Program-made: the position numbers and the translations under genes
Notes under the pieces: model-generated
What the model saw: only the letters and a program-made list of their open reading frames with translations
Told to the model about the DNA's origin: nothing
Database searches by the model: none
Sequence record: NC_048196.1
Length of the DNA: 64,000 nucleotides
Direction: 5' to 3' (one strand)
DNA from: Escherichia phage vB_EcoM_Schickermooser
In this document: piece by piece, positions 2,051 through 63,970 of the stretch
Position numbering within the stretch: position 1 is the stretch's first letter
Layout of the letters: each line of letters opens with the position of its first letter

Positions 2051-2508
2051 AACAACTATCTATACTGGAAGCGCATGTGCAATGTGTTGTAGATTATGTC
2101 AAAGAACACTCAAGTTTGTTGAATGTAACCTGTGCAGTGCAAAACGATGTAGGTATTGTCTGTGTGCAACATATCTTATCTGAAACTCGTTATGAAGTAT
2201 TTCGTGCCACGTTGTTTGGATGTGATCGAGTGCATGTAAACTTCCTGGACTCCAATTATCGTTATGCTTTAGAAAATATTGATGATTATCTTCCTTGCTC
2301 TCCGACAGGATATGTAATGGTAACAGCAAACGAAGTAACACCAAGCAACAGTGAGCGGGAAGCTTTGTTACGGAAGAAAATACGCCAACTGCAAGTGTTG
2401 AATGAACTGAAAGAAGAGATTGAAAAAGAGCTAAAAGAAGATTTTGGTATGCTTCCAAAAGACGCTTTGAAATGGTATGATGAACTAGGAGGAGAGAGCA
2501 ATGTTTAA
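2047..2508 (+). CDS. hypothetical protein
   Basis: GGGGAGG SD upstream; start overlaps previous stop. Confidence 0.55.
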   Translation: MKQLSILEAHVQCVVDYVKEHSSLLNVTCAVQNDVGIVCVQHILSETRYEVFRATLFGCDRVHVNFLDSNYRYALENIDDYLPCSPTGYVMVTANEVTPSNSEREALLRKKIRQLQVLNELKEEIEKELKEDFGMLPKDALKWYDELGGESNV

Positions 2509-2959
2509 AGAAGGTCATGTCTACCGTTTCCAGGATGAGGATTATATGCGACTATATTCTACCTTTGATAACAGTATTGCGGCTATCATTGGAGAGAATT
2601 TTTTCGAGGTGTTGAGCACTGATGCAAATGGTAATATCTTGTCAATGGTTGTAATAGGTATGAGAGATGGTATTATCACTGCTGGTGATGGGGATCGTTA
2701 CATAATCAATTCTGCTCATATAGATTATTTTGTTGACGGCGGTGTTCGTGGTGGTCGTGGAAAACCCCAAGAAGAACCTGTTGATACAACAAAAGAAGAG
2801 TGGTATGTTGTAATGACTGGTGACACCTGTATTTCTGGATCTCAAAATTATGAAGAAGCTTTGAAAGAAGCAGCGGAGCATAAAATGGCTAATCCTACAG
2901 AAGAGGTTGAAGTTTATAAACGTTTGGTTGTTGCTACCATCGGCGTATCTTTTGTTTAA
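2501..2959 (+). CDS. MFK-family protein 1 (hypothetical)
   Basis: N-terminus MFKEGHVYRF and C-terminal EVYKRLVVATIG shared with the next two ORFs. Confidence 0.55.
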   Translation: MFKEGHVYRFQDEDYMRLYSTFDNSIAAIIGENFFEVLSTDANGNILSMVVIGMRDGIITAGDGDRYIINSAHIDYFVDGGVRGGRGKPQEEPVDTTKEEWYVVMTGDTCISGSQNYEEALKEAAEHKMANPTEEVEVYKRLVVATIGVSFV

Positions 2960-2971
2960 AAGGAGAATGTT

Positions 2972-3757
2972 ATGTTTAAAGTAGGTTTTGTTTACAACTT
3001 CAAATCGGAAGATACCAAAAACAATTTTGGTAAAGCTAGTATTCGTAATGCCTTTTTTGTAGGTTGCATCCAAGATAGTAAATTTAAAGTTTTGGATGTT
3101 GATTTTCTTGGTTCTGTATCCAAGGTGAAGGTATTAGACACAAATAAAATCATCGAAGGTGGTTCTGGGCTTTTCCCTGAAGGTTATAAGCTTGTAAGTT
3201 GTATGGATTATACTCGTTTTGAAGAACATACTCCTGAAGATTATGAAGATTCTCCTACAGGAGGCTGTGTCTTTGTAGAAGGTGGTGTCTATAAGTTTGC
3301 AAGTGAACAAGATCGTAAGCTTTTCGCCAATTATATTGACGGAGGACAAACGACAAACAATGTAAACCGAAAAATTTCCGATCTTATTGGTGATGATCCT
3401 TTCGTGATCACAAAGATGGTTGGACAAGATGTAACAGCAATCCGTAGGCTTGTATGTAATACAAATCATGTAGCAGGTGAAGGTTGGTTCAAGGAAGCTT
3501 GTGCGCTGCTAATCAAAAGCGATAACCCTTATTTTAAAAATATTAAAGATGTTGTTGAGCCTAAACAAGAGGAATCCGCAGCGAATTTTAAACACTATGC
3601 TATTGTTAAAGGTATGAATGTCCAACTGGTGTCACATTCTTACGAAGAGATCGCCACAGAAGCAAAAAAGATGAAAGAAGAATACCCAATTTCTACTGTT
3701 GAGATCTATGAGCGTATTGGTGTTGTTAGTATTGAGCCTACTGCGGTAATAAAATAA
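2972..3757 (+). CDS. MFK-family protein 2 (hypothetical)
   Basis: N-terminus MFKVGFVYNF; AAGGAG SD upstream. Confidence 0.6.
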   Translation: MFKVGFVYNFKSEDTKNNFGKASIRNAFFVGCIQDSKFKVLDVDFLGSVSKVKVLDTNKIIEGGSGLFPEGYKLVSCMDYTRFEEHTPEDYEDSPTGGCVFVEGGVYKFASEQDRKLFANYIDGGQTTNNVNRKISDLIGDDPFVITKMVGQDVTAIRRLVCNTNHVAGEGWFKEACALLIKSDNPYFKNIKDVVEPKQEESAANFKHYAIVKGMNVQLVSHSYEEIATEAKKMKEEYPISTVEIYERIGVVSIEPTAVIK

Positions 3758-3766
3758 GGAGCTATT

Positions 3767-4204
3767 ATGTTCAAAGCTAATGCTGTTTACTGTTTCAAAA
3801 GCAAAGCTGCATGTGAAGCTTTCTCTACAATCTCTGATGAAAATTTCAAAATGGCAGCTTTGATTGAAGGGTCTTGTTTCCGCGTCGAAGATGTTAGTGA
3901 ATCAGGATCTGTTTGCTCGTTGACTTTATTGGACAGCGGAGATATTATTGAAGCTGGACAGTATCCGTTCAGAAGTTGGGAGATATTGTTAGCTCGCGGA
4001 GAGCGTAACTTTTTTATGTGCGTGTCTGCGGGGGAAGTTGTGAAAGAAACTAAGGATGTTTCTGTTTACAATTCTGAATTTATAAGTTATAGTGAGTATC
4101 AACATCTGGAAGGCATTGTTGGTCACTTGTTATCTCTGATTGACATTGAATGTGATTTGCCTGAATCATTGAAAGAAGAGTTGAAAGCATTAGATCTGCT
4201 GTAA
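3767..4204 (+). CDS. MFK-family protein 3 (hypothetical)
   Basis: N-terminus MFKANAVYCF; AAGGAG SD upstream. Confidence 0.55.
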   Translation: MFKANAVYCFKSKAACEAFSTISDENFKMAALIEGSCFRVEDVSESGSVCSLTLLDSGDIIEAGQYPFRSWEILLARGERNFFMCVSAGEVVKETKDVSVYNSEFISYSEYQHLEGIVGHLLSLIDIECDLPESLKEELKALDLL

Positions 4205-26587: not shown

Positions 26588-27178
26588 TCAAATTATTAAC
26601 GAAACCGCATGACTAAATCTTGGTTCAGATATAACCTCTGCTACAGTCACATATGTATCGTGCAGCCAAAAAGATTCTACTCTACAAACACAAATACCGT
26701 TGATAATGAAATCTACACAGGATTTATTATTTTCGCACACCTGTTGACTATAAACAACCCCTAAAGAGTCATAAAGTGATCTCACTGTTGCTACCATTTC
26801 ATCTGTTTCGTCTTCCTGTGAAACAAAGAAAACGAATACAGACAAGTTATTAGCGAAAGTATTGCTATTCTCTACTTCAACCGACTTACAAGGTAAAAAG
26901 GAGTAATATTTACCGTTAGGTATCAATTTCGCCTCAACCTGGTTAAGTATGCTTTGAGATGGTTTTGTTACATAAAAAAGATTTTCTGTTGGGTTTTCAA
27001 CATTACTCCTTACTATGCAACGAGTGGGGTTCGAAGGATCAAAAACATGATCGAAATCGACACACACAGGTAAGTTAACAACTTTAAACTTTTTGCTAAG
27101 AATGCTTACTGCTGTAAAAATCAAACCAGCATTTATTTTGCCAGTGAAAGTTGAACGCATAACTACTCCTCGGATCAT
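26588..27178 (-). CDS. hypothetical protein
   Basis: 196-aa ORF. Confidence 0.5.
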   Translation of the reverse strand: MIRGVVMRSTFTGKINAGLIFTAVSILSKKFKVVNLPVCVDFDHVFDPSNPTRCIVRSNVENPTENLFYVTKPSQSILNQVEAKLIPNGKYYSFLPCKSVEVENSNTFANNLSVFVFFVSQEDETDEMVATVRSLYDSLGVVYSQQVCENNKSCVDFIINGICVCRVESFWLHDTYVTVAEVISEPRFSHAVSLII

Positions 27179-28818: not shown

Positions 28819-28834
28819 TGCCCCCGAAGGGGCA
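28819..28834. terminator. intergenic stem-loop TGCCCC-CGAA-GGGGCA
   Basis: GC-rich hairpin flanked by T-rich sequence on both strands. Confidence 0.4.
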
Positions 28835-28839
28835 GTTTG

Positions 28840-29532
28840 TTAAATAGCGGTTCCTTCGAAATCCGCCACATTTACGAGATTAATATTTTCAGATTTAGAA
28901 GTCAAGTTGTTTTCTGCAACAGATTTTTCTTCAGTATCCGCCTCGTTACCTGCCACGTTACGAGGTTCTTCTTCACCGTAGGGATTACCGAATTTCAAAA
29001 GATTGATCAATTCTTCTTTGGAGAAGTTTTCTAAATCATCATCTGTTAATTCAATAATCTCGTCTTGTTCTTCAATAAATGTTTCACCACCAGAAAAAGC
29101 ATCTCGCTTTTTAGCTACTTCCATAGCCTGTTCTGGTGTTGCCCCTGCATCAAGAGCAGCTAAAGCAAAGTCTGACCCGCTTCCTACCGCATAATATTCT
29201 TCATCAATCGGATATGCACGTGTTGGGTTATTACCTTCGTGCAGGAAAATACGTCCGTCTGGATGAACAACAAGTGCAATAAACTCTTCATCTTCTTTAT
29301 CTGGATCAGAGTGAATCATCAAACCAGGGACAGCATCACGTGCTGCTTCGCACTGTAGATTTTGTTCAAACCATTGAAAGAAAGAAAGCACGGAGGTCAG
29401 ACGACCAGCACCACCTACAAGGTAATCTCCAATTTTTCGGACCTTTTTGAAATTAATAGAATCTACACGTCCACCAAAAGTTACCTTACCGTCACTCAAA
29501 ATCTTATTTTTGGTTGCAATAATTGTCGTCAC
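28840..29532 (-). CDS. HslV/proteasome-beta-like Ntn-hydrolase peptidase
   Basis: N-terminus MTTIIATKN (Thr right after Met), GGAGR and AVGSGSDFALAA resemble HslV; acidic C-terminal extension. Confidence 0.55.
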   Translation of the reverse strand: MTTIIATKNKILSDGKVTFGGRVDSINFKKVRKIGDYLVGGAGRLTSVLSFFQWFEQNLQCEAARDAVPGLMIHSDPDKEDEEFIALVVHPDGRIFLHEGNNPTRAYPIDEEYYAVGSGSDFALAALDAGATPEQAMEVAKKRDAFSGGETFIEEQDEIIELTDDDLENFSKEELINLLKFGNPYGEEEPRNVAGNEADTEEKSVAENNLTSKSENINLVNVADFEGTAI

Positions 29533-30035
29533 TATTCTTCCTCCTCTGTTAATGTTTTAAGAACCGCTTTCCCGCCATTCACATATTTGCAGATGTATTC
29601 TATCGCACGTAGTGTCTCTTTGTCAACAAAAATTTGATCAGACGTTGCGAGCGGGTTATTAAGAAGATCACTACAATCACGAACAAGCAGTGCTTTCTTA
29701 TTAAACAAATTACTTAAGAACAGTAACTTCGCCTCTTCTTCTGTTATGTGCAGAAGGCTAGGATCGGAGCCAGCTATTCCTATTATACAATCAAACAAGC
29801 TTTCTTTACTATCAGAAAGTTCTTGAAAATGGTTTAAAAGCCAATCTTCTCCTAGACACCAACATTTAAACATTTCCAGTTTATCTCGGAGGGTCATATT
29901 CTCTAAAGTAAGAGCAATCTCTTTTTCAATATGGTTTACACAAATTTGACGAAATTCGTTAGGTTTTACGAGTCCCGTTTGATAGCACTCATCTATACCG
30001 CTTCTTCCGATAGCTATTGTTGCTACACCCATCAA
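29532..30035 (-). CDS. hypothetical protein
   Basis: 167-aa ORF. Confidence 0.5.
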   Translation of the reverse strand: MMGVATIAIGRSGIDECYQTGLVKPNEFRQICVNHIEKEIALTLENMTLRDKLEMFKCWCLGEDWLLNHFQELSDSKESLFDCIIGIAGSDPSLLHITEEEAKLLFLSNLFNKKALLVRDCSDLLNNPLATSDQIFVDKETLRAIEYICKYVNGGKAVLKTLTEEEE

Positions 30036-30067: not shown

Positions 30068-30826
30068 TTAAATAAACACTTCAGTAATCAGTTTAGACAA
30101 ACGTCCACGTTTATTATCGTCCGTTGTCAGTTCAACGTATCCAATAAAATCTACAATTGGCTCACGAACACCTTCTTCATTTTCTGGATATAAAAGTTCC
30201 AAAATTTGATGCAGACCATTGCTACGTTTTTTAATTGCATATGTCTGGCGAACATCGCCTAATACAATAACATGCGTATTAATACCTGCACGTTCAATAA
30301 GAAGTTTAAGTGTTTCTGTTGACATAAGTTGTGCTTCGTCAATAATGACGATTGTATTATCCAGGGTAGCCCCCAACAAATAGTTAGGAATATTCAATTC
30401 GATCTTACCTGATCCAATATCGTTTTCCAATTTGTTGGCTGTCATGAATTGCTGGAAAATACGTTTTGTAGATTCATAGTGTGCTGCTAGTTTATCTGTT
30501 TTATCCCCAGACAAGAAACCAATCTGGTCATCTCCGACTTCAGTAGGGTTCTTGATAAAAAGTAGTTTACGGAAGTCTCCTGAACGAAGCATCTGCAAAG
30601 CTTTCCATAAAGCAACAGAGGTTTTACCAGTCCCTGCCGGAGCATTTACAACAGTCAGATCATTCCAAATCATGCTTTGAACAATCTTATTTTGGTCCCC
30701 TTCAGGCATAAATTCATCTAAACGGTAATCGTCATTACCTACCGCTTTTGCTGCATAACGGCTTTCAATCTTTGCTGAATTAGCCAGTTTCTGCCGTTGT
30801 GTTTTAGCTGCGGTTTTATTTCCCAT
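30068..30826 (-). CDS. phoH: PhoH-like ATPase
   Basis: Walker A NAPAGTGKT; start set to ATG 30826 (AAGGAG upstream) because the listed N-terminal extension covers the terminator hairpin. Confidence 0.75.
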   Translation of the reverse strand: MGNKTAAKTQRQKLANSAKIESRYAAKAVGNDDYRLDEFMPEGDQNKIVQSMIWNDLTVVNAPAGTGKTSVALWKALQMLRSGDFRKLLFIKNPTEVGDDQIGFLSGDKTDKLAAHYESTKRIFQQFMTANKLENDIGSGKIELNIPNYLLGATLDNTIVIIDEAQLMSTETLKLLIERAGINTHVIVLGDVRQTYAIKKRSNGLHQILELLYPENEEGVREPIVDFIGYVELTTDDNKRGRLSKLITEVFI

Positions 30827-30843
30827 AGTAGCACTCCTTTTAG

Positions 30844-30861
30844 AAGGGGCCGAAGCCCCTT
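30844..30861 (-). terminator. recurrent stem-loop AAGGGGC-CGAA-GCCCCTT
   Basis: between lysozyme stop and phoH SD. Confidence 0.45.
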
Positions 30862-30863
30862 TA

Positions 30864-31364
30864 TTAGTTGTAAGCATCTAAAGTTCCAGAAGTCAGAACT
30901 TTAATTACTCGTTCAGCACGGTTTGGCGTCTGGCTATACCATCGGCTTTTACGCATGTTTTTACCTGCTTGAGTATAATATGCATTGCTGATTAAAGTCA
31001 AGCTATTTTGAAACCCTTCAGCACCTTTTAACCCCAACTGGAAAACCATGTTGATTATTCCCAATTTACGAGTATCACTCACCTTATCATAGATTGGTGA
31101 TAAGATAGCACTGTTTTTTATGTCTCTCTTCACTTTTGCAACATCGTCAGCAAAGATTTGACGGGCTTCTTTTTCTGTGATAACTCCATTGGTCTTACGA
31201 CCAAGGAGATTATCTAAGATTTGAATAGCCTTTGCTTTATCTTTTATTTTAGTCAGAAGGTGTCCTATGCCGACTGTCCAATAACCAAGATGGTCTTGAT
31301 AAACAGTAAGCTTCAGTCCTTCATCGACTCGTAGCATATCAAACTCATCTACTACTTTAGCCAT
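30864..31364 (-). CDS. T4-type lysozyme (endolysin, muramidase)
   Basis: DEGLKLTVYQDHLGYWTVGIGHLL and SRWYSQTPNRAERVI closely match T4 lysozyme E as recalled. Confidence 0.8.
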   Translation of the reverse strand: MAKVVDEFDMLRVDEGLKLTVYQDHLGYWTVGIGHLLTKIKDKAKAIQILDNLLGRKTNGVITEKEARQIFADDVAKVKRDIKNSAILSPIYDKVSDTRKLGIINMVFQLGLKGAEGFQNSLTLISNAYYTQAGKNMRKSRWYSQTPNRAERVIKVLTSGTLDAYN

Positions 31365-31526: not shown

Positions 31527-31787
31527 TTACTCCGCAATTTGAGCCATGAGATCACGCAGTTCGGTAAAACCGCCTACGTATGTTACCTCCCCGTTCACTT
31601 CAGACAAAATTTGTGGAAATGTGCGTGGAGGAACTCCGGTAAGATCAACAACTGTTTTAGTCATTGATTCTAAATCGTAGTCTTGGTCAAGACTTAAATA
31701 TTCAAACTGTTTATTGCGCATGGTTAATAGTTGTTTTGACATTTCGCAAAATTGACAGTTAGGTTTACCAAAAATTACAAATTCCAT
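31527..31787 (-). CDS. glutaredoxin (NrdH/Grx-like)
   Basis: CQFC redox motif in GKPNCQFCEMSK; 86 aa. Confidence 0.65.
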   Translation of the reverse strand: MEFVIFGKPNCQFCEMSKQLLTMRNKQFEYLSLDQDYDLESMTKTVVDLTGVPPRTFPQILSEVNGEVTYVGGFTELRDLMAQIAE

Positions 31788-32629
31788 TACCTCTCCTTAT
31801 TAAGTAATACTGCTAAAGACCGTTCAATACCTTTATTTAAATCTGATTTTGTAAGATAGTGACTGGTTACTAGTTGTGACTTCACCGGACGTGCTGCTGG
31901 AGCATTATAGGTTGAAGCTGATACCGCCGATATCTTAACAGGTTCTGGCATCTGTGTCAAGATCTTTTCCGCAAACTCCGCCCAAGAAATAAGATGGCTT
32001 CCTGCAAAATGGTAAGTCTTTACAGATCTTGACCAACCTGTTTTTAATACTTCAAAAATAGCTTCTGCTAAATCTGGGGCATATGTTGGACAAGAGAACT
32101 GATCTGCAACGATAGTAAAATCACGTTGTCCATCATTATAGCGAGACAACATAGTTTTTAGAAAGTTATTTCCAAATTCACTATATACAGACGCTGTTCG
32201 AATAATATATGCGTTCGGGTTAACTCCTCGCACCATTTTTTCACCGAGTTCTTTCGTATACCCATAATTGTTTATCGGGTTAGGTGTAGTATCTTCAAAA
32301 ATAGGATGAGAATAATTAAAAATATAGTCTGTAGAAATATGCACAAAATCAATTTTAAGTTTGCTGCACACTGCCGCAATATTTGCAGGGCCATAGGCAT
32401 TAACAGCCAAAGCAGTAGCAAAATCATGTTCTGCTTTATCTACAGCCGTATAAGCAGCGCAATTAATAACACCATCTACATAATCTTCAATAATAGCGTT
32501 TCGCACAGCTTCAAAATTTGTAATATCTACACGTTCTTTAGGATAAATTAAAGACACATTTGAAGGAGCCACTTTACGTAAAGCTTGTCCCAGTTGTCCA
32601 TTACCACCCAATACCAGATATGTTAGCAT
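31787..32629 (-). CDS. rmlD: dTDP-4-dehydrorhamnose reductase
   Basis: N-terminal GGNGQLG Rossmann motif; about 280 aa; last gene of rml operon. Confidence 0.7.
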   Translation of the reverse strand: MLTYLVLGGNGQLGQALRKVAPSNVSLIYPKERVDITNFEAVRNAIIEDYVDGVINCAAYTAVDKAEHDFATALAVNAYGPANIAAVCSKLKIDFVHISTDYIFNYSHPIFEDTTPNPINNYGYTKELGEKMVRGVNPNAYIIRTASVYSEFGNNFLKTMLSRYNDGQRDFTIVADQFSCPTYAPDLAEAIFEVLKTGWSRSVKTYHFAGSHLISWAEFAEKILTQMPEPVKISAVSASTYNAPAARPVKSQLVTSHYLTKSDLNKGIERSLAVLLNKER

Positions 32630-33189
32630 ACACCCTCGCTACGTAGCTGTTGAAAAGACTTAGCCATTGCATCTTTTGTTGATAAGATAGGTTTAAAATC
32701 TTCGTCAAAAATCATATCGAAGCCCCAATCAATCCCTATATCAGGATCATCCCAACGTAAACTTTGTTCGCTGGAAGGGTCGTATGGAGTTGTGCATTTG
32801 TATTCGAAGATAGCATCCATACTCAACACTATAAAACCATGTGCCAAACCAGGTGGAAGCCAGAACTGTGTATGGTGTCGTGCACGAAGAACAACACCGT
32901 CCCAAGCACCGTAAGTAGGACTATCTTTACGTAGGTCTACAGCGAAATCCAATACTTCCCCACTTACACAACGAACAAGCTTACCTTGCGGATTATTTGT
33001 TTGAAAGTGCATTCCTCGCAAAACACCGAAGTTTGATTTAGACATGTTATCTTGAACGAAAGTTTGTCTACCAATGATATCTTCATATTTTTGTTCATTA
33101 TATGTTTCTAAAAAGAAACCACGGTCATCTTTATAAACGTCTGGTTTGATAATTACCGCACCTTCAATTTTTGTTTTTTCTACTTTCAT
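32623..33189 (-). CDS. rmlC: dTDP-4-dehydrorhamnose 3,5-epimerase
   Basis: start set to ATG 33189 (GGAGG upstream, ATGA overlap with rmlA stop); DDRGFFLE cupin motif. Confidence 0.7.
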
Positions 33190-34064
33190 TTTCCCTCCGC
33201 TAATTTGAGTAGGTATTGCCCGTACTCTGTTTTCTTCAGTGAGTTTCCATGGTAGACCAAAGTCTCTAAAGAAATCCACCCTTTTTTGAAAGCAATTTCT
33301 TCCAGGCACGCAATCTTCAATCCTTGACAGTTCTCAATAGTCTGCACGAATTGACCAGCTTCCATCAGACTGGCGTGTGTTCCTGTGTCAAGCCAAGTAA
33401 ATCCTCGTCCGAGAACTTCTACTTGTAACTTCCTGTCTTCGAGGTAGCTGCGATTGATATCGGTGATCTCCAGTTCTCCACGCGCGGAAGGGGTTACTTC
33501 TAATGCACGTTGAATAACAGAGTTATCATAGAAATATAAACCTGTGACAGCATAATCTGATTTAGGATTTTCAGGTTTCTCTTCAATAGAAATAACTTGA
33601 CGATTACTCCCAAATTCAACCACACCGAATCGTTCAGGATCTTTCACCAAACACCCGAAGATACAAGCTCCGCCCCAAACATCTACCATCTCACTAGCGT
33701 TAATCAGTAGTTTACCAAAGCTTTGTCCGAAGAATAGGTTGTCACCTAAAATAAGAGCAACAGAGTCTTCTCCGATAAAATCTTTACCGATGATGAAAGC
33801 GTCCGCAAGACCTCGTGGCTCGGATTGGATTGCGTAAGTGAGTTTTATCCCAAACATAGACCCATCTCCAAGAAGATGCTCAAAGTCTTCCTGATCGCCT
33901 GGTGTGGTGATGATTAAGATATCCTTAATGTCAGCCAACATCAATACCGATAAGGGGTAGTAGATCATAGGTTTGTCATACACAGGGAGCAATTGCTTGC
34001 TCACACTGCGTGTTACCGGATGAAGGCGGGTTCCACTTCCTCCCGCCAAAATAATACCTTTCAT
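33186..34064 (-). CDS. rmlA: glucose-1-phosphate thymidylyltransferase
   Basis: N-terminus [18 protein letters not shown]. Confidence 0.8.
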
Positions 34065-41705: not shown

Positions 41706-42260
41706 CTAACTTTCAATTTCCTGCAATAGGATTTTGACTATTTGTTTGCGGCGTTTCGCTACTGTGCTTTCAGGTTCTATTTTACGCTTCTTCAACCAAG
41801 CTTTATCTTTCTTAGCTCTACACAAAGCTATTGCTTCTTTTTCAGCTTTCGCTTCTTCAAAAGATATGCCTTGCTTGTCTGCATAAGCAAGAATAGAGTT
41901 GCACAATTTACAAACCATTCGCAAATCTTCTTCTTTCACATAGATTAAACGGAAAACAAAAAGAGGAATATCATCAAAACATTGAAGTTGTTTTGCTGCG
42001 TGAATATGATCCACTTGGAAGTCTTTCATTCCTCCTCTATGTCCACATATTTCGCACTCACAATTCCAAACTTGTTTTGGTTTTCCAGTTTTCTTGTCTA
42101 TCATCACATTGCCGTCTTTATCTACGCGATCAACTTTAAAACGCCTTGCATTGATAACCTTAATTTTATTAGGGTGTCTCATCCATGCTTTTCTAAAACA
42201 TCCTCTAAGATAAGTATAAAATTCCGCTTGTGTTTTCCAGGGTGTTCCTTCACCCCACAT
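41706..42260 (-). CDS. HNH endonuclease
   Basis: CECEICGH ... DHIH ... CKLCN; ATG 42260 preferred over TTG 42281. Confidence 0.55.
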   Translation of the reverse strand: MWGEGTPWKTQAEFYTYLRGCFRKAWMRHPNKIKVINARRFKVDRVDKDGNVMIDKKTGKPKQVWNCECEICGHRGGMKDFQVDHIHAAKQLQCFDDIPLFVFRLIYVKEEDLRMVCKLCNSILAYADKQGISFEEAKAEKEAIALCRAKKDKAWLKKRKIEPESTVAKRRKQIVKILLQEIES

Positions 42261-42448
42261 TATTTTTGGTTCACCTGCCAATATTGCTCACCTTTTTAGC
42301 TGTATATTCCCCTGGTGGGATATTGTGTTTAAAAAACAAAAGGCGGTCTAACCCCGCCTTGCACATTGTTTCTGGAATAGTCAAAGTTAGTAAAAGTTTA
42401 TCACCTTTTCGGTTGAATATTTTATAAACTTCTCCTGCTCCATATTGT

Positions 42449-42850
42449 TTAGTATTGCTCGCCACTAATACGTTCCTTAAGTTGTTTAATAGCTTCAACT
42501 GCATCTACATAAGAAGAGTTATACATGTGTTTCAGTGCCACTCGGATTAAAGGATCTTTTGTGAAGAAATCAATAAGAAGCATAGCTTGATCATGTTTAG
42601 CTGCATTTGTCATAGATGGATAATTTTCACGAACCATATACGTGTTATTTTGCATAAGGGTTCTTTCTAGTTCGATACAATGAATAGCTTTATCTAGGTT
42701 AATCTGACGTTCACCTTTAATACGTGTTGCGTATTTTGCCAATTTGCAAAAACAAGGTGTGCCACCAACCAAATAAGTTAGTTCGATAGGTTGCATTGCC
42801 ATTTTTGTGTAGTGATCACCGTCAACCTGATTATCAAAAGCATTAGACAT
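42449..42850 (-). CDS. hypothetical protein
   Basis: 133-aa ORF. Confidence 0.5.
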   Translation of the reverse strand: MSNAFDNQVDGDHYTKMAMQPIELTYLVGGTPCFCKLAKYATRIKGERQINLDKAIHCIELERTLMQNNTYMVRENYPSMTNAAKHDQAMLLIDFFTKDPLIRVALKHMYNSSYVDAVEAIKQLKERISGEQY

Positions 42851-43115
42851 AATTTTCCTCCTGAATTCCTACTGCGCCTTCTTCTGGGTAATCTGTATAA
42901 TAAGCTACCCTACCTTGATAGATAACATCACCATCATCATTGTAGATTGCTGTATCTTCTTGAATTGTTATTTTAACGTCAAGTAAATCTGGGTCTTTCT
43001 CGATGGTGTAGTTTAAACCTAACATTTCAAACAGTTCGAAAATTTCGTTACCTGTTAATGTAATGCTCATATTTCCTCCTTTTATTGTGGTTAGCAGAGT
43101 ATACACTAATATCAA
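42843..43115 (-). CDS. hypothetical protein
   Basis: AAGGAGGAAAT SD then ATG. Confidence 0.5.
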   Translation of the reverse strand: MILVYTLLTTIKGGNMSITLTGNEIFELFEMLGLNYTIEKDPDLLDVKITIQEDTAIYNDDGDVIYQGRVAYYTDYPEEGAVGIQEENYV

Positions 43116-43125
43116 ATTTTTGTCA
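43097..43125 (-). promoter_or_regulatory. sigma70-like promoter, minus strand (TTGACA-N17-TATACT)
   Basis: directly downstream of terminator hairpin 43132-43150. Confidence 0.5.
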
Positions 43126-43131
43126 ATAAAA

Positions 43132-43150
43132 AAGGGAGCAATAAGCTCCC
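43132..43150 (-). terminator. intrinsic terminator, minus strand
   Basis: AGGGAGC-AATAA-GCTCCCT hairpin followed by TTTTTTA. Confidence 0.5.
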
Positions 43151-43156
43151 TGATTA

Positions 43157-44116
43157 TTAGATTCCAATAATAGTTGCTGCTCGTTTATCTTTGGATCTGG
43201 TGTTTGCTCTACTACGTGACAAACCTCCACAAGATTCACAACGAATGATATCGAAAGAACTTACCGCAGTGTGGTATTGTTTACCAGTAACAACGTGAAC
43301 GTGATCACTGCCACAACGAGAACAACGGACCTTCTCATCTGGGTAATAAGCGGATAAGTTAGGATGCTGTGGAATCCACGGAAGGATTTTCATATACAAA
43401 TCACGGAGCGAAACAACATCACCATCATTGTAAATCTGCATACGTTCAAAAGCATCACGATCACCTTCACAACATGCTTTCCATAAAGGGAACCCCTCGT
43501 TATCCAGTTTTTCACTTTCTGTTTCGAAATATGCTCCCATTTCTTTAAGGGAGTTGGAAGGAAGTGCAAATTGTTTCTTAGCTGCCTTCAATGTATCAAC
43601 AACTACATAATTAGAAGGAGGAGCCATATCGTGATATGCAAATCGTTGGTTAATGTATGCACGGTCAAACTTATATCCGTTGTGTGCCACAACTACATCT
43701 GCCTCATTCAGAAGGTTCCAAAGATCTTGGCAAAGCTCCCAATCATCTGTATGATCAATATCAAAAAGAGGATAAGAAGACAAGTTCTTACCTTCCACTT
43801 CACCAGTATACAGGTCGGCAGAAGAGTAAGATAACAAATAACCCCTACGAATTACTTGATCTGGAGAAATGAAGGCTTTGAATCGACGGAAAGTATATGC
43901 AATCTCTGGTGCAGTTTCAACATCAATAATTTTAATAACTGGTTGTTTCTTTTTAACTGGCTCTTGTTTACTTGCTCCGAATCGTGCAAGGAAATCGTTC
44001 ACTGTGCTTTTTCTTGTTGGACTACCTAAAACAATTGCTGCAATATTGCGAGAAGACATACCCTCTGCACTCATACTAAGGATATCTGCTTTCTGCTCTT
44101 CTGTTAATCTGCTCAC
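43157..44116 (-). CDS. DEDD-type 3'-5' exonuclease with N-terminal HTH and C-terminal zinc ribbon
   Basis: IIDVETA (Exo I), VVAHNGYKFD (Exo II), YNDGD (Exo III-like); CSRCG ... CESCGG. Confidence 0.55.
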   Translation of the reverse strand: MSRLTEEQKADILSMSAEGMSSRNIAAIVLGSPTRKSTVNDFLARFGASKQEPVKKKQPVIKIIDVETAPEIAYTFRRFKAFISPDQVIRRGYLLSYSSADLYTGEVEGKNLSSYPLFDIDHTDDWELCQDLWNLLNEADVVVAHNGYKFDRAYINQRFAYHDMAPPSNYVVVDTLKAAKKQFALPSNSLKEMGAYFETESEKLDNEGFPLWKACCEGDRDAFERMQIYNDGDVVSLRDLYMKILPWIPQHPNLSAYYPDEKVRCSRCGSDHVHVVTGKQYHTAVSSFDIIRCESCGGLSRSRANTRSKDKRAATIIGI

Positions 44117-61831: not shown

Positions 61832-63397
61832 GTGTCAACAGGAAAAAGAACGTACACTAAAAAGTCAGAATACTGGGACAAAGGTGCTGCAAATAAAGCT
61901 GCTCTCTCTCCAACAAAAGAGGCAGAGAAAGAGAAAACGTTACTCCTGTCACCTGAAATAGGAACGATCGGATTAAACTCAATCAAAGCATTTACGAATT
62001 TCATGCAACCTTATGAGACTCGTTTCCCAGAATGTATTCGCACTTTTAAAGAGATGGGTGAAGACCCTGATGTAGCTACTGCTCTTGACGCTACATATAT
62101 CTTTGTAGATAGAGCATTCTTTGATTTCAAGATAAAATACAATGTAAACTCGGCAAAGTCAAGAAAAGCTGCTAAGTTTATTGATTACATGTTACGCAAT
62201 ATGCAAGCCCCTCTACGTCAATATGTTAGATCACTTTTGACATATAAGCAATACGGGTTTGCATTCGCAGAAAAAGTTTATGAGTTGGATGAAGATCCTA
62301 AGAGTCCTTACTTTGGGTATTGGCGATTGACCAAACTGGCTTTTAGACCACAAGACACTCTTCACATGGCTCAACCTTTTACATATTCGGCAGACGGACG
62401 TTCTATTCTATCTGTTAACCAGAATATCACCAATACGATGTTAGCTCCAGGTAATACAACTTTAGAAACTGGTATTAAAGAAATTCCTTTCAGTAAAGTT
62501 TTATTTGTTGGTAGTAACATTACAGAGAATAACCCACTAGGAGTTAGTCCGCTTTTAGCTGTATATCGTAGCTGGCGTGAAAAATCTCTTATTCAGGAAT
62601 TTGAGGTTATTGGGGTATCTAAAGATTTAGGCGGTATGCCAGTTCTTAAGGTTCCAAGTGACATTCTAAACAGGGCATCTTTAGATCCTGCTGGGGATGA
62701 AGCACAATCTCTTCGAGTTCTCCAAGCCAATATCGCTAACCTGCACTCTGGTGAGCAAGCCTATATGGTATTGCCTTCAGACGTTTATGAAGGCACAGTG
62801 ATGCGTCAATACGATCTTGTATTCCAAGGTGTTGATGGCACGGGTAAACAGTTTGACACTCAAGCACTAATCAAACAACGCAAACTGGATATTTATAACC
62901 GCTTTGGTGCGGGTGTGTTGATTATGGGTGATGGTGATGCAGGAAGTTTTGCGCTTTCTGACAACAAACAAACACTATTGTCTCATTTTATTGAGCGAGA
63001 TGTAGATATTGTTGTAGAAGCTATAAACTCTCAACTGATCCCTCAAACACTACGACTAAACAATATCTTCCTTTCTGATGAAGATATGCCTAAGTTTGTC
63101 AGTGGTGAAATGGGTGATCCTGATATTGAAGTAAATGCTAAAGCTATTCAGCAGTTGGTAGCCTCTGGTGCAATACCTTTAACCCCAGAAGTTATTAACG
63201 AGTTCCTTGAAAAAATTGGTTTTGAATATCGTATCCCTGACGATATTGTTGCCAATAAAGAGAAATTCTTTGAATTCATGGATAACTATATGCCTGACAA
63301 AACTTCACGATCAGGAGATGGTTTAGCTACAGCGGGAACTGGAACGTCTGATACTGTTTCTGCTTTAGATCCTTCGGCACAAAACCTGTCGAATTAA
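61832..63397 (+). CDS. putative portal protein
   Basis: 521-aa ORF directly downstream of terL; GTG start after TGGAGGAACAA; assignment from position and size only. Confidence 0.5.
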   Translation: MSTGKRTYTKKSEYWDKGAANKAALSPTKEAEKEKTLLLSPEIGTIGLNSIKAFTNFMQPYETRFPECIRTFKEMGEDPDVATALDATYIFVDRAFFDFKIKYNVNSAKSRKAAKFIDYMLRNMQAPLRQYVRSLLTYKQYGFAFAEKVYELDEDPKSPYFGYWRLTKLAFRPQDTLHMAQPFTYSADGRSILSVNQNITNTMLAPGNTTLETGIKEIPFSKVLFVGSNITENNPLGVSPLLAVYRSWREKSLIQEFEVIGVSKDLGGMPVLKVPSDILNRASLDPAGDEAQSLRVLQANIANLHSGEQAYMVLPSDVYEGTVMRQYDLVFQGVDGTGKQFDTQALIKQRKLDIYNRFGAGVLIMGDGDAGSFALSDNKQTLLSHFIERDVDIVVEAINSQLIPQTLRLNNIFLSDEDMPKFVSGEMGDPDIEVNAKAIQQLVASGAIPLTPEVINEFLEKIGFEYRIPDDIVANKEKFFEFMDNYMPDKTSRSGDGLATAGTGTSDTVSALDPSAQNLSN

Positions 63398-63490: not shown

Positions 63491-63970
63491 ATGGAACTCA
63501 ATAAAGATACACTGTGGGAACTCTTCAAAACCTTCGCTGGTTTTAAAGAGAATTCTGAATCCCAACAAGATTCTATACCATCTCAAAAACCTGAAACTCT
63601 AGTCAAACAAAATAAATTTGATGAAGAAAAGATGCAGGTTATTGAGGTCTTGTATTGTCCACCTGAAGAAGACGATCTCCACGGAGAGCGCATGTCTGAT
63701 TTGGAAATCAGGAAGATGGTTGACAACTTCAATGAGAATATTACCAACATTAGTGGTAATCTTGGTCACATGAAGAACACCGATAAGTTTTCTCCAATTA
63801 AAGCTTGGGTAAATGAAGTCGATTGTTACATTGGTGACGAACTCGTTGTGGAAGGAACTCCCCTCGTTAAAATCCAATTCAACGACCCTGAATTATATCA
63901 AGCTCGTAAAGACGGCGTTCTTAAAGGTTTGAGTATAGGCGCAATGGGCGTTAAAGTCAAGAAGGACTAA
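63491..63970 (+). CDS. hypothetical head-morphogenesis-region protein
   Basis: 159-aa ORF following the putative portal. Confidence 0.45.
   Translation: MELNKDTLWELFKTFAGFKENSESQQDSIPSQKPETLVKQNKFDEEKMQVIEVLYCPPEEDDLHGERMSDLEIRKMVDNFNENITNISGNLGHMKNTDKFSPIKAWVNEVDCYIGDELVVEGTPLVKIQFNDPELYQARKDGVLKGLSIGAMGVKVKKD

Follow-up and report, generated by a model that had tools for sequence, protein, structure and literature searches.

A gene on the minus strand of a 64,000-nt stretch of phage DNA (the whole stretch that was analysed, referred to as the window) was found to encode a 230-aa peptidase at 28840..29532. From sequence comparisons and a structure model, its product is probably a phage-borne member of the proteasome/Ntn-hydrolase family, of an extended PPH type, that acts without docking to the host HslU. 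Methionine aminopeptidase would expose a threonine as the N-terminal nucleophile, and the peptidase would self-assemble and act as a threonine peptidase during infection without host HslU docking. A C-terminal arm would face outward and recruit or gate substrates or a partner, possibly a co-translated helical protein. The gene would provide an accessory host-interaction function that is not essential for replication or morphogenesis. An earlier note on this DNA had proposed an HslV/proteasome-like phage peptidase with an acidic C-terminal extension, and this was supported by fold prediction and conserved catalytic residues.

The coding sequence was predicted as a proteasome-family (HslV/PPH-like) Ntn threonine peptidase from the ORF list, profiles and the model. 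It starts with GTG at 29532-29530 and ends with TAA at 28840-28842, and the translation opens with MTTIIATKN. The interval had been given exactly in the earlier note, with the strand unstated. The GTG shares one base with the TAG stop codon of the ORF that precedes it (TAGTG), which couples the two genes translationally. The upstream ORF (29532..30035, minus strand) encodes an all-alpha protein of 166-167 aa (phrog_14834), which is a possible but unproven partner of the peptidase. A strong Shine-Dalgarno sequence (GAGGAGG; 29540..29546, minus strand) was read directly 7 nt 5' of the GTG. A consensus scan gave a sigma-70-like promoter match (TTGACA, 18 nt, TAGAAT; 11/12; 29597..29626, minus strand) within the upstream ORF, 65 nt ahead of the GTG. 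This match is weak evidence of a promoter, with 29 such sites in the region versus 21 expected by chance. Downstream, a GC-rich hairpin (TGCCCC-TTCG-GGGGCA, followed by TTTCTT; 28819..28834, minus strand) begins 5 nt past the stop codon and was recognised by consensus scan and from the sequence. By pattern match only, it is a candidate terminator-like or RNA-stabilising element.

The likeness of the peptidase to the proteasome/HslV family exceeds chance by far. Matches were obtained to Pfam PF00227 (Proteasome; 25.6 bits, E=1.1e-5, gathering cut-off 22.4), to PHROG 1040 ('peptidase HslV family'; E=1.6e-63, residues 1-229 against profile positions 14-247 of 277) and, by sequence, to T. maritima HslV (1m4y; E=4.9e-9). 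HslV was the top sequence match among solved structures. The peptidase is 99.6% identical to RefSeq phAPEC8 gp175 (YP_007348462.1), which is labelled 'peptidase HslV family', and the window comes from a Phapecoctavirus (phAPEC8-like coliphage). With this RefSeq label already in place, the gene is not a new one: an accessory gene that had been annotated before, in a coliphage genus that is well sampled, has been correctly found again. The label 'HslV family' exaggerates the closeness of the peptidase to HslV.

The catalytic core comprises residues 1-155 (29068..29532, minus strand), as delimited by conserved columns and the secondary structure of the model. After removal of Met, Thr2 (codon 29527-29529) would presumably act as the nucleophile. 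That a Thr nucleophile directly follows the initiator Met had been read from the translation before, and T2 was indeed aligned to HslV T1, together with D14 to D17 and K30 to K33 (alignment A3). Asp14, Lys30, Gly41/Gly43 and Gly117-Ser118-Gly119 thereby correspond to HslV Asp17, Lys33, the Gly-rich loop and the GSG motif. Both stretches that had been said to align to HslV did so: GGAGR (residues 40-44) with GFAGG, and AVGSGSDFALAA (residues 115-126) with AIGSGGPYAQAA. M1, T2, T3, D14, K30, G41, G43, G117, S118 and G119 were invariant in an alignment of 20 sequences (A1), and the same ten residues were invariant or conserved to at least 90% among 64 sequences (A2). An MTT start was present in 209 of 233 family members. 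Identity of the core to the query averaged 68.6% over 62 homologues.

The AF2 model of the peptidase had a mean pLDDT of 84.5, with core blocks at 89-99 except for the 71-80 loop (78). Searching the PDB with this model by Foldseek returned 760 matches at E<=1e-3, with BPH, HslV and proteasome beta on top (probability 1.0). The Ntn-hydrolase fold on which the earlier proposal depended, with its alpha-beta-beta-alpha architecture, was predicted with confidence by AF2 and Foldseek. The modelled helices are one long H1 (45-67), H3 (120-128) and H4 (133-143). Helix H2 is missing from the model; at the place where HslV has H2, residues 68-83 form a 16-residue Pro-containing loop.

The peptidase is not an HslV orthologue, since it scored far under the cut-offs of the NCBIfam HslV equivalogs (NF003964, 32.2 bits versus 137; TIGR03692, 31.4 bits versus 157.75) and lacks H2. 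Non-orthology and the absent helix make a partnership with host HslU doubtful, and the peptidase is probably not a true partner of this ATPase. The suggested independence is built on missing features of sequence and model. In HslV, the H2 residues Ala79 and Lys80 belong to the pocket for the HslU C-tail (PMC6429459). HslV Lys28 was aligned with a variable residue, Ser25, and HslV Phe57, a pocket residue on H1, with the near-invariant Phe52, by which the H1 part of the pocket is kept.

A functional replacement of HslV was considered, in which phage rings dock onto host HslU and either feed a phage-controlled chamber or titrate HslU from host HslV. The retained Phe52, a hydrophobic H1 residue, the conserved catalytic apparatus and the rank of HslV as top sequence match among solved structures are consistent with this. 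The family occurs in phages of Escherichia, Klebsiella, Vibrio, Aeromonas, Shewanella, Caulobacter, Rhizobium and Pseudomonas, hosts which encode HslUV, and with no phage HslU found any HslU would have to be that of the host. The host has HslU, and HslV-type rings on their own generally show weak peptidase activity until they are activated, which counts against a peptidase that acts without HslU. Such a replacement is nevertheless unlikely, if conceivable, given that the model lacks H2 as the source of pocket residues Ala79 and Lys80, that Lys28 is not conserved, that equivalog scores were four- to five-fold under the cut-off, that 8-9 residues are deleted between H3 and H4, and that the C-terminal extension is unknown in HslV.

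With E. coli HslU as phmmer query, neither the window nor positions 1-146,799 of the 147,737 in the phAPEC8 record yielded an HslU-like ORF at E<=10, and a search of the phAPEC8 genome for a further proteasome-like gene gave none. The sole AAA-family ATPase of phAPEC8 is gp014 (PF00004, 29.9 bits), which adjoins an endonuclease. As an HslU-type partner gp014 was rejected, being encoded about 105 kb away with nothing that links it to the peptidase gene. A phage-encoded partner of the peptidase is conceivable, since phAPEC8 does encode this AAA-family protein.

HslV has nothing equivalent to the last 75 residues of the peptidase (156-230), which carry a net charge of -15 (pI 4.05). In these respects the acidic tail of the earlier note was recovered; it is not uniformly loose, in that residues 164-181 (LTDDDLENFSKEELINLL; 28990..29043, minus strand) form a conserved two-helix element behind the core. 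This element was defined by model and conservation, with helices modelled at 164-169 and 172-181 and mean AF2 pLDDT of 87-91 in the 10-residue blocks over 161-180. Its family motif, L-T/S-x-E-x5-S/T-K-E-E-L-I, is conserved in phage homologues of Escherichia, Klebsiella, Aeromonas, Vibrio and Shewanella, and the element was present in every extended homologue aligned from these five host genera. The strict motif occurred in 93 of the 143 members that reach 180 aa versus 3 of 90 shorter members.

The distal acidic tail (residues about 187-230; 28843..28974, minus strand) was delimited by pLDDT, conservation and charge. Among homologues it showed 16% identity and 40% gaps. Residues 190-214 had pLDDT <50 and were modelled as disordered, and residues 189-230 have a net charge of -6. 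The distal tail is thus predicted to be fast-evolving and disordered. The C-terminal motif L-K-x2-A-x2-L-x-I-x-Y-A-H-N-I-G-x-E-K-L, carried by many relatives, is absent from it. Overall, the conserved helical element of the extension gives way to an acidic remnant that is decaying. A resemblance by eye of the conserved motif, and of the C-terminal motif of relatives, to HeH/SAP/Rho-N-type helix-extended-helix motifs was discarded after Pfam scans of seven tails gave nothing credible. A profile of 19 C-terminal motifs matched among PDB sequences only a repeat-protein artefact and, weakly, IST1.

Enzymes that do not degrade proteins, connectase among them, also belong to the proteasome-like superfamily, and several of its new families are possibly incompatible with a closed double ring according to Fuchs et al. 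(PMC8665760). The phage protein could accordingly be a repurposed Ntn scaffold, that is, a specific processing enzyme, a transpeptidase/ligase comparable to connectase or an amidohydrolase whose substrate is not a protein, with the arm selecting a single target. A closed double ring may be precluded by the missing H2 and the additional arm, and the varied C-terminal modules of relatives fit target recognition. This explanation is quite improbable: the model contains no active-site-covering insertion as in the connectase signature, the closest structural matches are genuine proteases without exception (HslV, BPH and proteasome beta), and no gene presents itself as a candidate substrate by a conserved motif for cleavage or ligation.

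The C-terminally extended subfamily as a whole might be an HslU-independent 'mini-proteasome', in which the helical arm and the AHNIG-type motif of relatives tether a specific partner, and which would serve as a regulated-proteolysis module removing particular host proteins. Candidates for the tethered partner are the helical protein that is co-translated, the PhoH-like ATPase next door and nucleic acid. This proposal is speculative and is given a low probability. If true, it would describe a previously undescribed phage module for clearing host proteins, e.g. defence or stress-response factors.

A PhoH-like ATPase gene (30068..30877, minus strand; PHROG 170) is a conserved syntenic neighbour. 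In all extended-subfamily phages examined the order was lysozyme, PhoH, none to several small ORFs, and peptidase; PhoH is not adjacent to the short 140-aa homologues. As a functional partner PhoH was dismissed, the adjacency being confined to one set of syntenic large myoviruses and missing beside short homologues. It is attributed to shared descent. A PhoH-peptidase 'fusion' (P0066) was ruled out as Rosetta-stone evidence and is a deletion product. The minus-strand block around the peptidase gene further contains genes for RNR, thymidylate synthase, dTDP-rhamnose, glutaredoxin, a methyltransferase and a phosphatase, in addition to lysozyme and PhoH. The gene thus belongs to a block of nucleotide-metabolism/early type, at a distance from the head genes. 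PADLOC gave no defence-system match for the peptidase or its two small neighbours.

The family was matched in 232 phage records, the peptidase is 99-100% conserved in 62 phage records, and homologues were located on viral contigs of 140-156 kb. Among 185,579 bacterial and archaeal species genomes a single close match was obtained, on a 425-bp contig. The extended subfamily consists of about 57 representative clusters at 50% identity; each of the five lineages examined has it in large myoviruses of gamma-proteobacteria, with lysozyme and PhoH upstream of it. In phage VEcB, a 1122-bp in-frame deletion removes peptidase codons 1-62 including the Thr, Asp and Lys. The deletion is taken as natural, although it could in principle be an assembly error. 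Because viable phage VEcB carries it, the gene appears dispensable for growth. This dispensability, together with loss from the distal tail of a C-terminal motif retained by relatives, would also fit a decaying or non-functional passenger gene. A passenger is very improbable in view of the 68.6% core identity over 62 homologues with invariant or nearly invariant catalytic residues, the near-complete protein conservation in 62 phage records, the strong Shine-Dalgarno site with translational coupling, and retention across at least five host genera.

Large myoviruses require head maturation proteases, and processing of phage proteins had been suggested in the earlier note; both would accord with a protease for morphogenesis, acting in the maturation of the prohead or of some other part of the virion. 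The peptidase gene is located about 33 kb from the head module, on the opposite strand and amid metabolic genes. Neither a head-module position nor an S78/S80/U9/U35-type fold, as for a prohead protease, was found for it. An XkdF-like S78 prohead protease (PF14550, 1.4e-11; 63491-63967) is encoded at the canonical site in the head module, directly after the portal gene, and a head-maturation role of the peptidase is unlikely because of this dedicated enzyme. With VEcB being a viable isolate in which the catalytic N-terminus is deleted, a morphogenetic function is hardly credible.

Phage-encoded proteasome-family proteases were catalogued by computation in 2021, and experimental work on phage HslV/PPH homologues, including biochemistry or genetics of close relatives, was not found in the literature. 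If active, HslU-independent and directed at defined host targets, the peptidase would represent a novel type of tool for host takeover or counter-defence by phages. As a minimal form of the proteasome without H2, it would also be of structural and evolutionary interest.

Among known systems, PHROG 1040 and phAPEC8 gp175 do not differ from the peptidase of the window and represent the same gene. HslV (ClpQ; E. coli b3932; PDB 1m4y, 1g3i, 1e94) likewise has its Thr directly behind Met, the aligned Asp17, Lys33, Gly loop and GSG motif, and the same fold as predicted for the peptidase, at 28% identity for the E. coli protein. HslV has two helix pairs, H1/H2 and H3/H4, and forms a dodecameric double hexamer that HslU activates. 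Unlike HslV, the peptidase has no H2 helix, no adjacent hslU and no conserved Lys28, is shortened by 8-9 residues between H3 and H4, and bears a C-terminal extension.

BPH of Thiobacillus denitrificans (PDB 5ovs/5ovt) was the top Foldseek match to the model (E=8e-10). It forms heptameric double rings, is not phage-encoded and is 21-22% identical to the peptidase; unlike the peptidase, it retains four flanking helices and a long acidic pore loop. According to PMC5777263, BPH is a protease of proteasome-like type for whose activity no AAA+ partner is known, and it offers a precedent for a stand-alone ring.

PPH and RPC are characterised by the lack of H2, and PPH occur in Caudovirales phages (Fuchs et al. 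2021; PMC8665760). Compared by description, RPC (2021) resembles the peptidase in having a PPH-like core without H2 and an extra C-terminal region, but is listed only for Proteobacteria, not for phages, and as a cluster that diverges further. With PPH the peptidase shares tailed-phage origin, a compact proteasome-like core, the Thr/Asp/Lys triad, the lack of a propeptide and the lack of H2. PPH are placed in group I, related to HslV and BPH, as is the peptidase. The two differ in length: PPH are described at about 140 residues, whereas the 230-aa peptidase has a core of ~155 aa and a 75-aa extension including the two-helix element. Shorter relatives of 137-160 aa exist, and a profile search beyond the 57 extended-subfamily representatives matched mostly proteins of this size (1e-23 to 1e-30). 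With a core profile, short phage homologues scored 58-89 bits and E. coli HslV 50 bits. The assignment to PPH was made by features and not by sequence comparison to the published representative WP_042125023.1; on these features, the description that suits the peptidase best is that of a PPH-type homologue, phage-specific and akin to HslV and BPH, with an extended C-terminus.

The peptidase gene was confirmed at 28840-29532, as the earlier note had it, from the ORF list of the window; it lies on the minus strand, which had gone unstated, and encodes 230 aa. Its GTG start codon (29532-29530, minus strand, read from the sequence) shares one base with the upstream ORF's TAG stop (TAGTG) and stands 7 nt 3' of a strong Shine-Dalgarno sequence, GAGGAGG. 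The translated N-terminus is M-T-T-I-I-A-T-K-N. A near-consensus match to a sigma-70 promoter (TTGACA, 18 nt, TAGAAT; pattern match only) is located at 29597-29626 on the minus strand, within the upstream ORF and 65 nt 5' of the GTG. This candidate promoter could allow expression of the peptidase without that of the upstream gene. A GC-rich hairpin with UUCG tetraloop (TGCCCC-TTCG-GGGGCA), followed by TTTCTT, was found at 28819-28834 (minus strand), beginning 5 nt 3' of the peptidase stop and 24 nt ahead of where the next gene starts. The hairpin resembles a terminator or may act as an mRNA-stabilising element; the phAPEC8 annotation has no equivalent.

The window belongs to Phapecoctavirus, phAPEC8-like E. 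coli myoviruses with genomes of about 150 kb. The 8 kb around the gene were 99.9% identical in DNA to phage vB_EcoM_3A1_SA_NWU and 99.1-99.8% to the remaining records listed, and 62 phage records carry the protein at 99% identity or more. In RefSeq, gp175 (the copy in phAPEC8) has the name 'peptidase HslV family', and the family is catalogued in the literature; the gene is thus a rediscovery. No experimental study of any phage member of the family was found in the literature, and the protein showed no similarity to known defence-system proteins. Two records labelled 'Campylobacter phage B15' and 'Campylobacter phage C3' (MG065650.1, MG065656.1) are close to E. coli phages in this region: B15 has 99.3% DNA identity to the window across 8 kb, and the C3 peptidase has 67.7% identity to the query, on a par with Justusliebigvirus records. 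Their host labels are doubtful.

Assignment to an HslV/proteasome-like peptidase proved right at the level of fold and superfamily. The protein scored 25.6 bits with Pfam Proteasome (PF00227; gathering cut-off 22.4) and 1.6e-63 over residues 1-229 with PHROG 1040 'peptidase HslV family', and its best PDB sequence matches were HslV structures (1m4y at 4.9e-9). An AlphaFold2 model built from 64 homologues had a mean pLDDT of 84.5, with core blocks at 89-99 except for the 71-80 loop (78). Foldseek matched it to BPH (the beta-proteobacterial homologue), HslV and 20S beta subunits, all with probability 1.0; the Ntn-hydrolase fold, whose absence had been named beforehand as refutation, is therefore predicted. 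The motifs noticed earlier, GGAGR and AVGSGSDFALAA, are present at residues 40-44 and 115-126, and Thr does follow the initiator Met directly, as claimed. M1, T2, T3, D14, K30, G41, G43 and G117-S118-G119 show no or almost no variation among homologues; the conserved residues align to HslV Thr1, Asp17, Lys33, Gly loop and GSG, and 209 of 233 family members start with MTT. Judged from these alignments, the catalytic apparatus is intact and under selection. That the gene is a decaying passenger is very improbable, and conversion of the Ntn scaffold into a specific processing enzyme or ligase is considered quite unlikely. Met1 would be removed by methionine aminopeptidase, since the specificity of that enzyme for Thr at P1' is established.

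The protein is not HslV in the orthologue sense. With two NCBIfam HslV equivalog models it reached 32.2 and 31.4 bits versus cut-offs of 137 and 157.75. HslV Lys28, which touches the HslU C-terminal carboxylate (1G3I structure), aligns to a variable Ser25, and the H3-H4 span is 8-9 residues shorter than in E. coli HslV; one H1 residue of the pocket is kept (HslV Phe57, here Phe52). In the model, a single long H1 (45-67) leads into a proline-containing loop of 16 residues that takes the place of HslV H2. In HslV, H2 contributes Ala79 and Lys80 to the pocket that accepts the HslU C-terminus (PMC6429459). Neither an HslU-like ORF nor a second proteasome-like gene was found in the window or the phAPEC8 record (for the former, positions 1-146,799 of 147,737). 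The low equivalog scores, missing H2, H3-H4 deletion, Ser25 and lack of an HslU-like ORF make host HslU a doubtful partner, and we regard its use or titration by the peptidase as unlikely.

Absence of H2 marks out PPH, the phage-specific proteasome homologue, and its relative RPC (Fuchs et al., PMC8665760). When 1.84 billion representative proteins were searched with a profile, 57 clusters came up at E<=1e-30, almost all 183-350 aa in length (the extended subfamily), and the next tier was made up largely of 137-160-aa proteins at 1e-23 to 1e-30. With a core-only profile, extended Aeromonas, Vibrio and Shewanella phage proteins scored 116-133 bits, short Caulobacter, Rhizobium and Pseudomonas phage proteins 58-89 bits and E. 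coli HslV 50 bits. From the graded scores, the tiers and the missing H2, the protein was filed as a C-terminally extended PPH-type homologue, matched to published PPH by described features. A single-peptide-pattern scan of one genome each from 185,579 bacterial and archaeal species gave one close copy only, and its contig, just 425 bp long, probably represents contamination by phage DNA; within that scan, the extended subfamily looks phage-restricted.

The acidic tail absent from HslV was borne out: residues 156-230 (net charge -15, pI 4.05) have no HslV counterpart in the alignment. This tail divides into a conserved helical element and a degenerate acidic remnant. Residues 164-181 (LTDDDLENFSKEELINLL) form two helices in the model (161-180 blocks, mean pLDDT 87-91) and carry the motif L-T/S-x-E-x5-S/T-K-E-E-L-I, present in all extended homologues aligned (Escherichia, Klebsiella, Aeromonas, Vibrio and Shewanella phages) and, in strict form, in 93 of the 143 members that reach 180 aa versus 3 of 90 shorter ones. 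Conservation is low over residues ~187-230 (16% identity, 40% gaps), and 190-214 are disordered in the model (pLDDT <50). Many relatives have a further C-terminal motif, approximately L-K-x2-A-x2-L-x-I-x-Y-A-H-N-I-G-x-E-K-L, and some also a middle domain; the Phapecoctavirus protein retains a vestige of the terminal motif at most. A by-eye resemblance of the tail motifs to HeH/SAP (helix-extended-helix) was unsupported by Pfam or PDB-sequence profile searches and is not put forward here. The arm may recruit or gate something, because C-termini in the superfamily mostly point away from the ring and are possible interaction sites (Fuchs et al., PMC8665760).

The gene lies within a long minus-strand block with ribonucleotide reductase, thymidylate synthase, PhoH, DNA methyltransferase and Ser/Thr phosphatase genes. 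The block also holds four dTDP-rhamnose pathway genes (~31787-34000 and upstream; glucose-1-phosphate thymidylyltransferase, 3,5-epimerase, reductase and another nucleotide-sugar epimerase), followed by glutaredoxin and T4-type lysozyme genes, all in the direction of the peptidase. The head module is ~33 kb away on the opposite strand and contains an XkdF-like S78 prohead protease (63491-63967, plus strand; PF14550, 1.4e-11) directly behind the portal gene (61946-63394). Its presence speaks against head maturation as the function of the HslV-like protein; that the latter is a morphogenetic protease is hardly credible. The identical phAPEC8 gene of the S78 protease, gp117, bears the name 'DNA methyltransferase' in RefSeq, apparently in error. 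The order lysozyme, PhoH, none to several small ORFs, peptidase recurs in Justusliebigvirus, Klebsiella KP13-16, Aeromonas 2L372D, Vibrio qdvp001 and Shewanella 1/40, and was absent beside the short homologues in the Caulobacter, Rhizobium and Pseudomonas phages examined. Common descent of these myoviruses suffices to account for the shared order. Within Stephanstirmvirinae, phrog_14834, the coupled ORF upstream, stays directly next to the peptidase and is a possible partner; its product is confidently modelled as all-alpha (pLDDT 91), and the model gave no informative structural match. Elsewhere in the window, both PHROG 4806 and RefSeq call a 196-aa product (26588-27178, minus strand) 'histidyl tRNA synthetase'. 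It is much too short to be a complete synthetase, phAPEC8 gp042 bears the same label elsewhere, and the label is probably misleading. The sole AAA-type ATPase noticed in the phAPEC8 genome, gp014 (42206-43345 of stretch L012, record 139005-140144, outside the window; PF00004, 29.9 bits versus cut-off 21.2), lies beside an endonuclease gene and showed no link to the peptidase.

Escherichia phage VEcB (NC_052663.1), an isolated Justusliebigvirus with complete genome, carries an in-frame deletion of 1122 bp with 8-nt microhomology (2501-3304 of its stretch L014 versus 3065-4186 of comparison stretch L003). PhoH codons 1 to ~114 are joined to the peptidase from ~codon 63; the entire intervening ORF and the part of the peptidase with Thr, Asp and Lys are lost, leaving a chimera of the PhoH N-terminal half and the C-terminal two-thirds of the HslV-like protein. 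It is labelled 'peptidase HslV family' in RefSeq and 'PhoH-like protein domain-containing' in UniRef. The viable isolate thus amounts to a natural triple knockout. If the deletion is not an artefact of assembly, none of the three genes is needed for plaque formation, which fits an accessory, host-interaction role of the peptidase.

The picture favoured, with somewhat better than even confidence as a whole and less for each inferred step, is an HslU-independent, self-assembling proteasome-type threonine peptidase with an outward arm. It would be produced alongside early or middle metabolic genes; Met1 would be taken off, exposing Thr as N-terminal nucleophile; and the helical arm and acidic tail would point outward and bind or gate substrates or a partner. 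Beyond the annotation, this analysis adds the lack of HslV orthology, the missing H2 part of the HslU pocket, the two-part tail and the natural deletion in VEcB. The role of phage proteasome homologues deserves experiment.

Aeromonas phage 2L372D has two tandem PHROG 1040 genes (L005 3432-3983 and 4001-4885, counted within its stretch). The first encodes a divergent 183-aa paralogue with an MTC start and an insertion at the place of H2, the second a 294-aa extended form; they could make up a two-subunit arrangement, one that is lacking in the coliphage.
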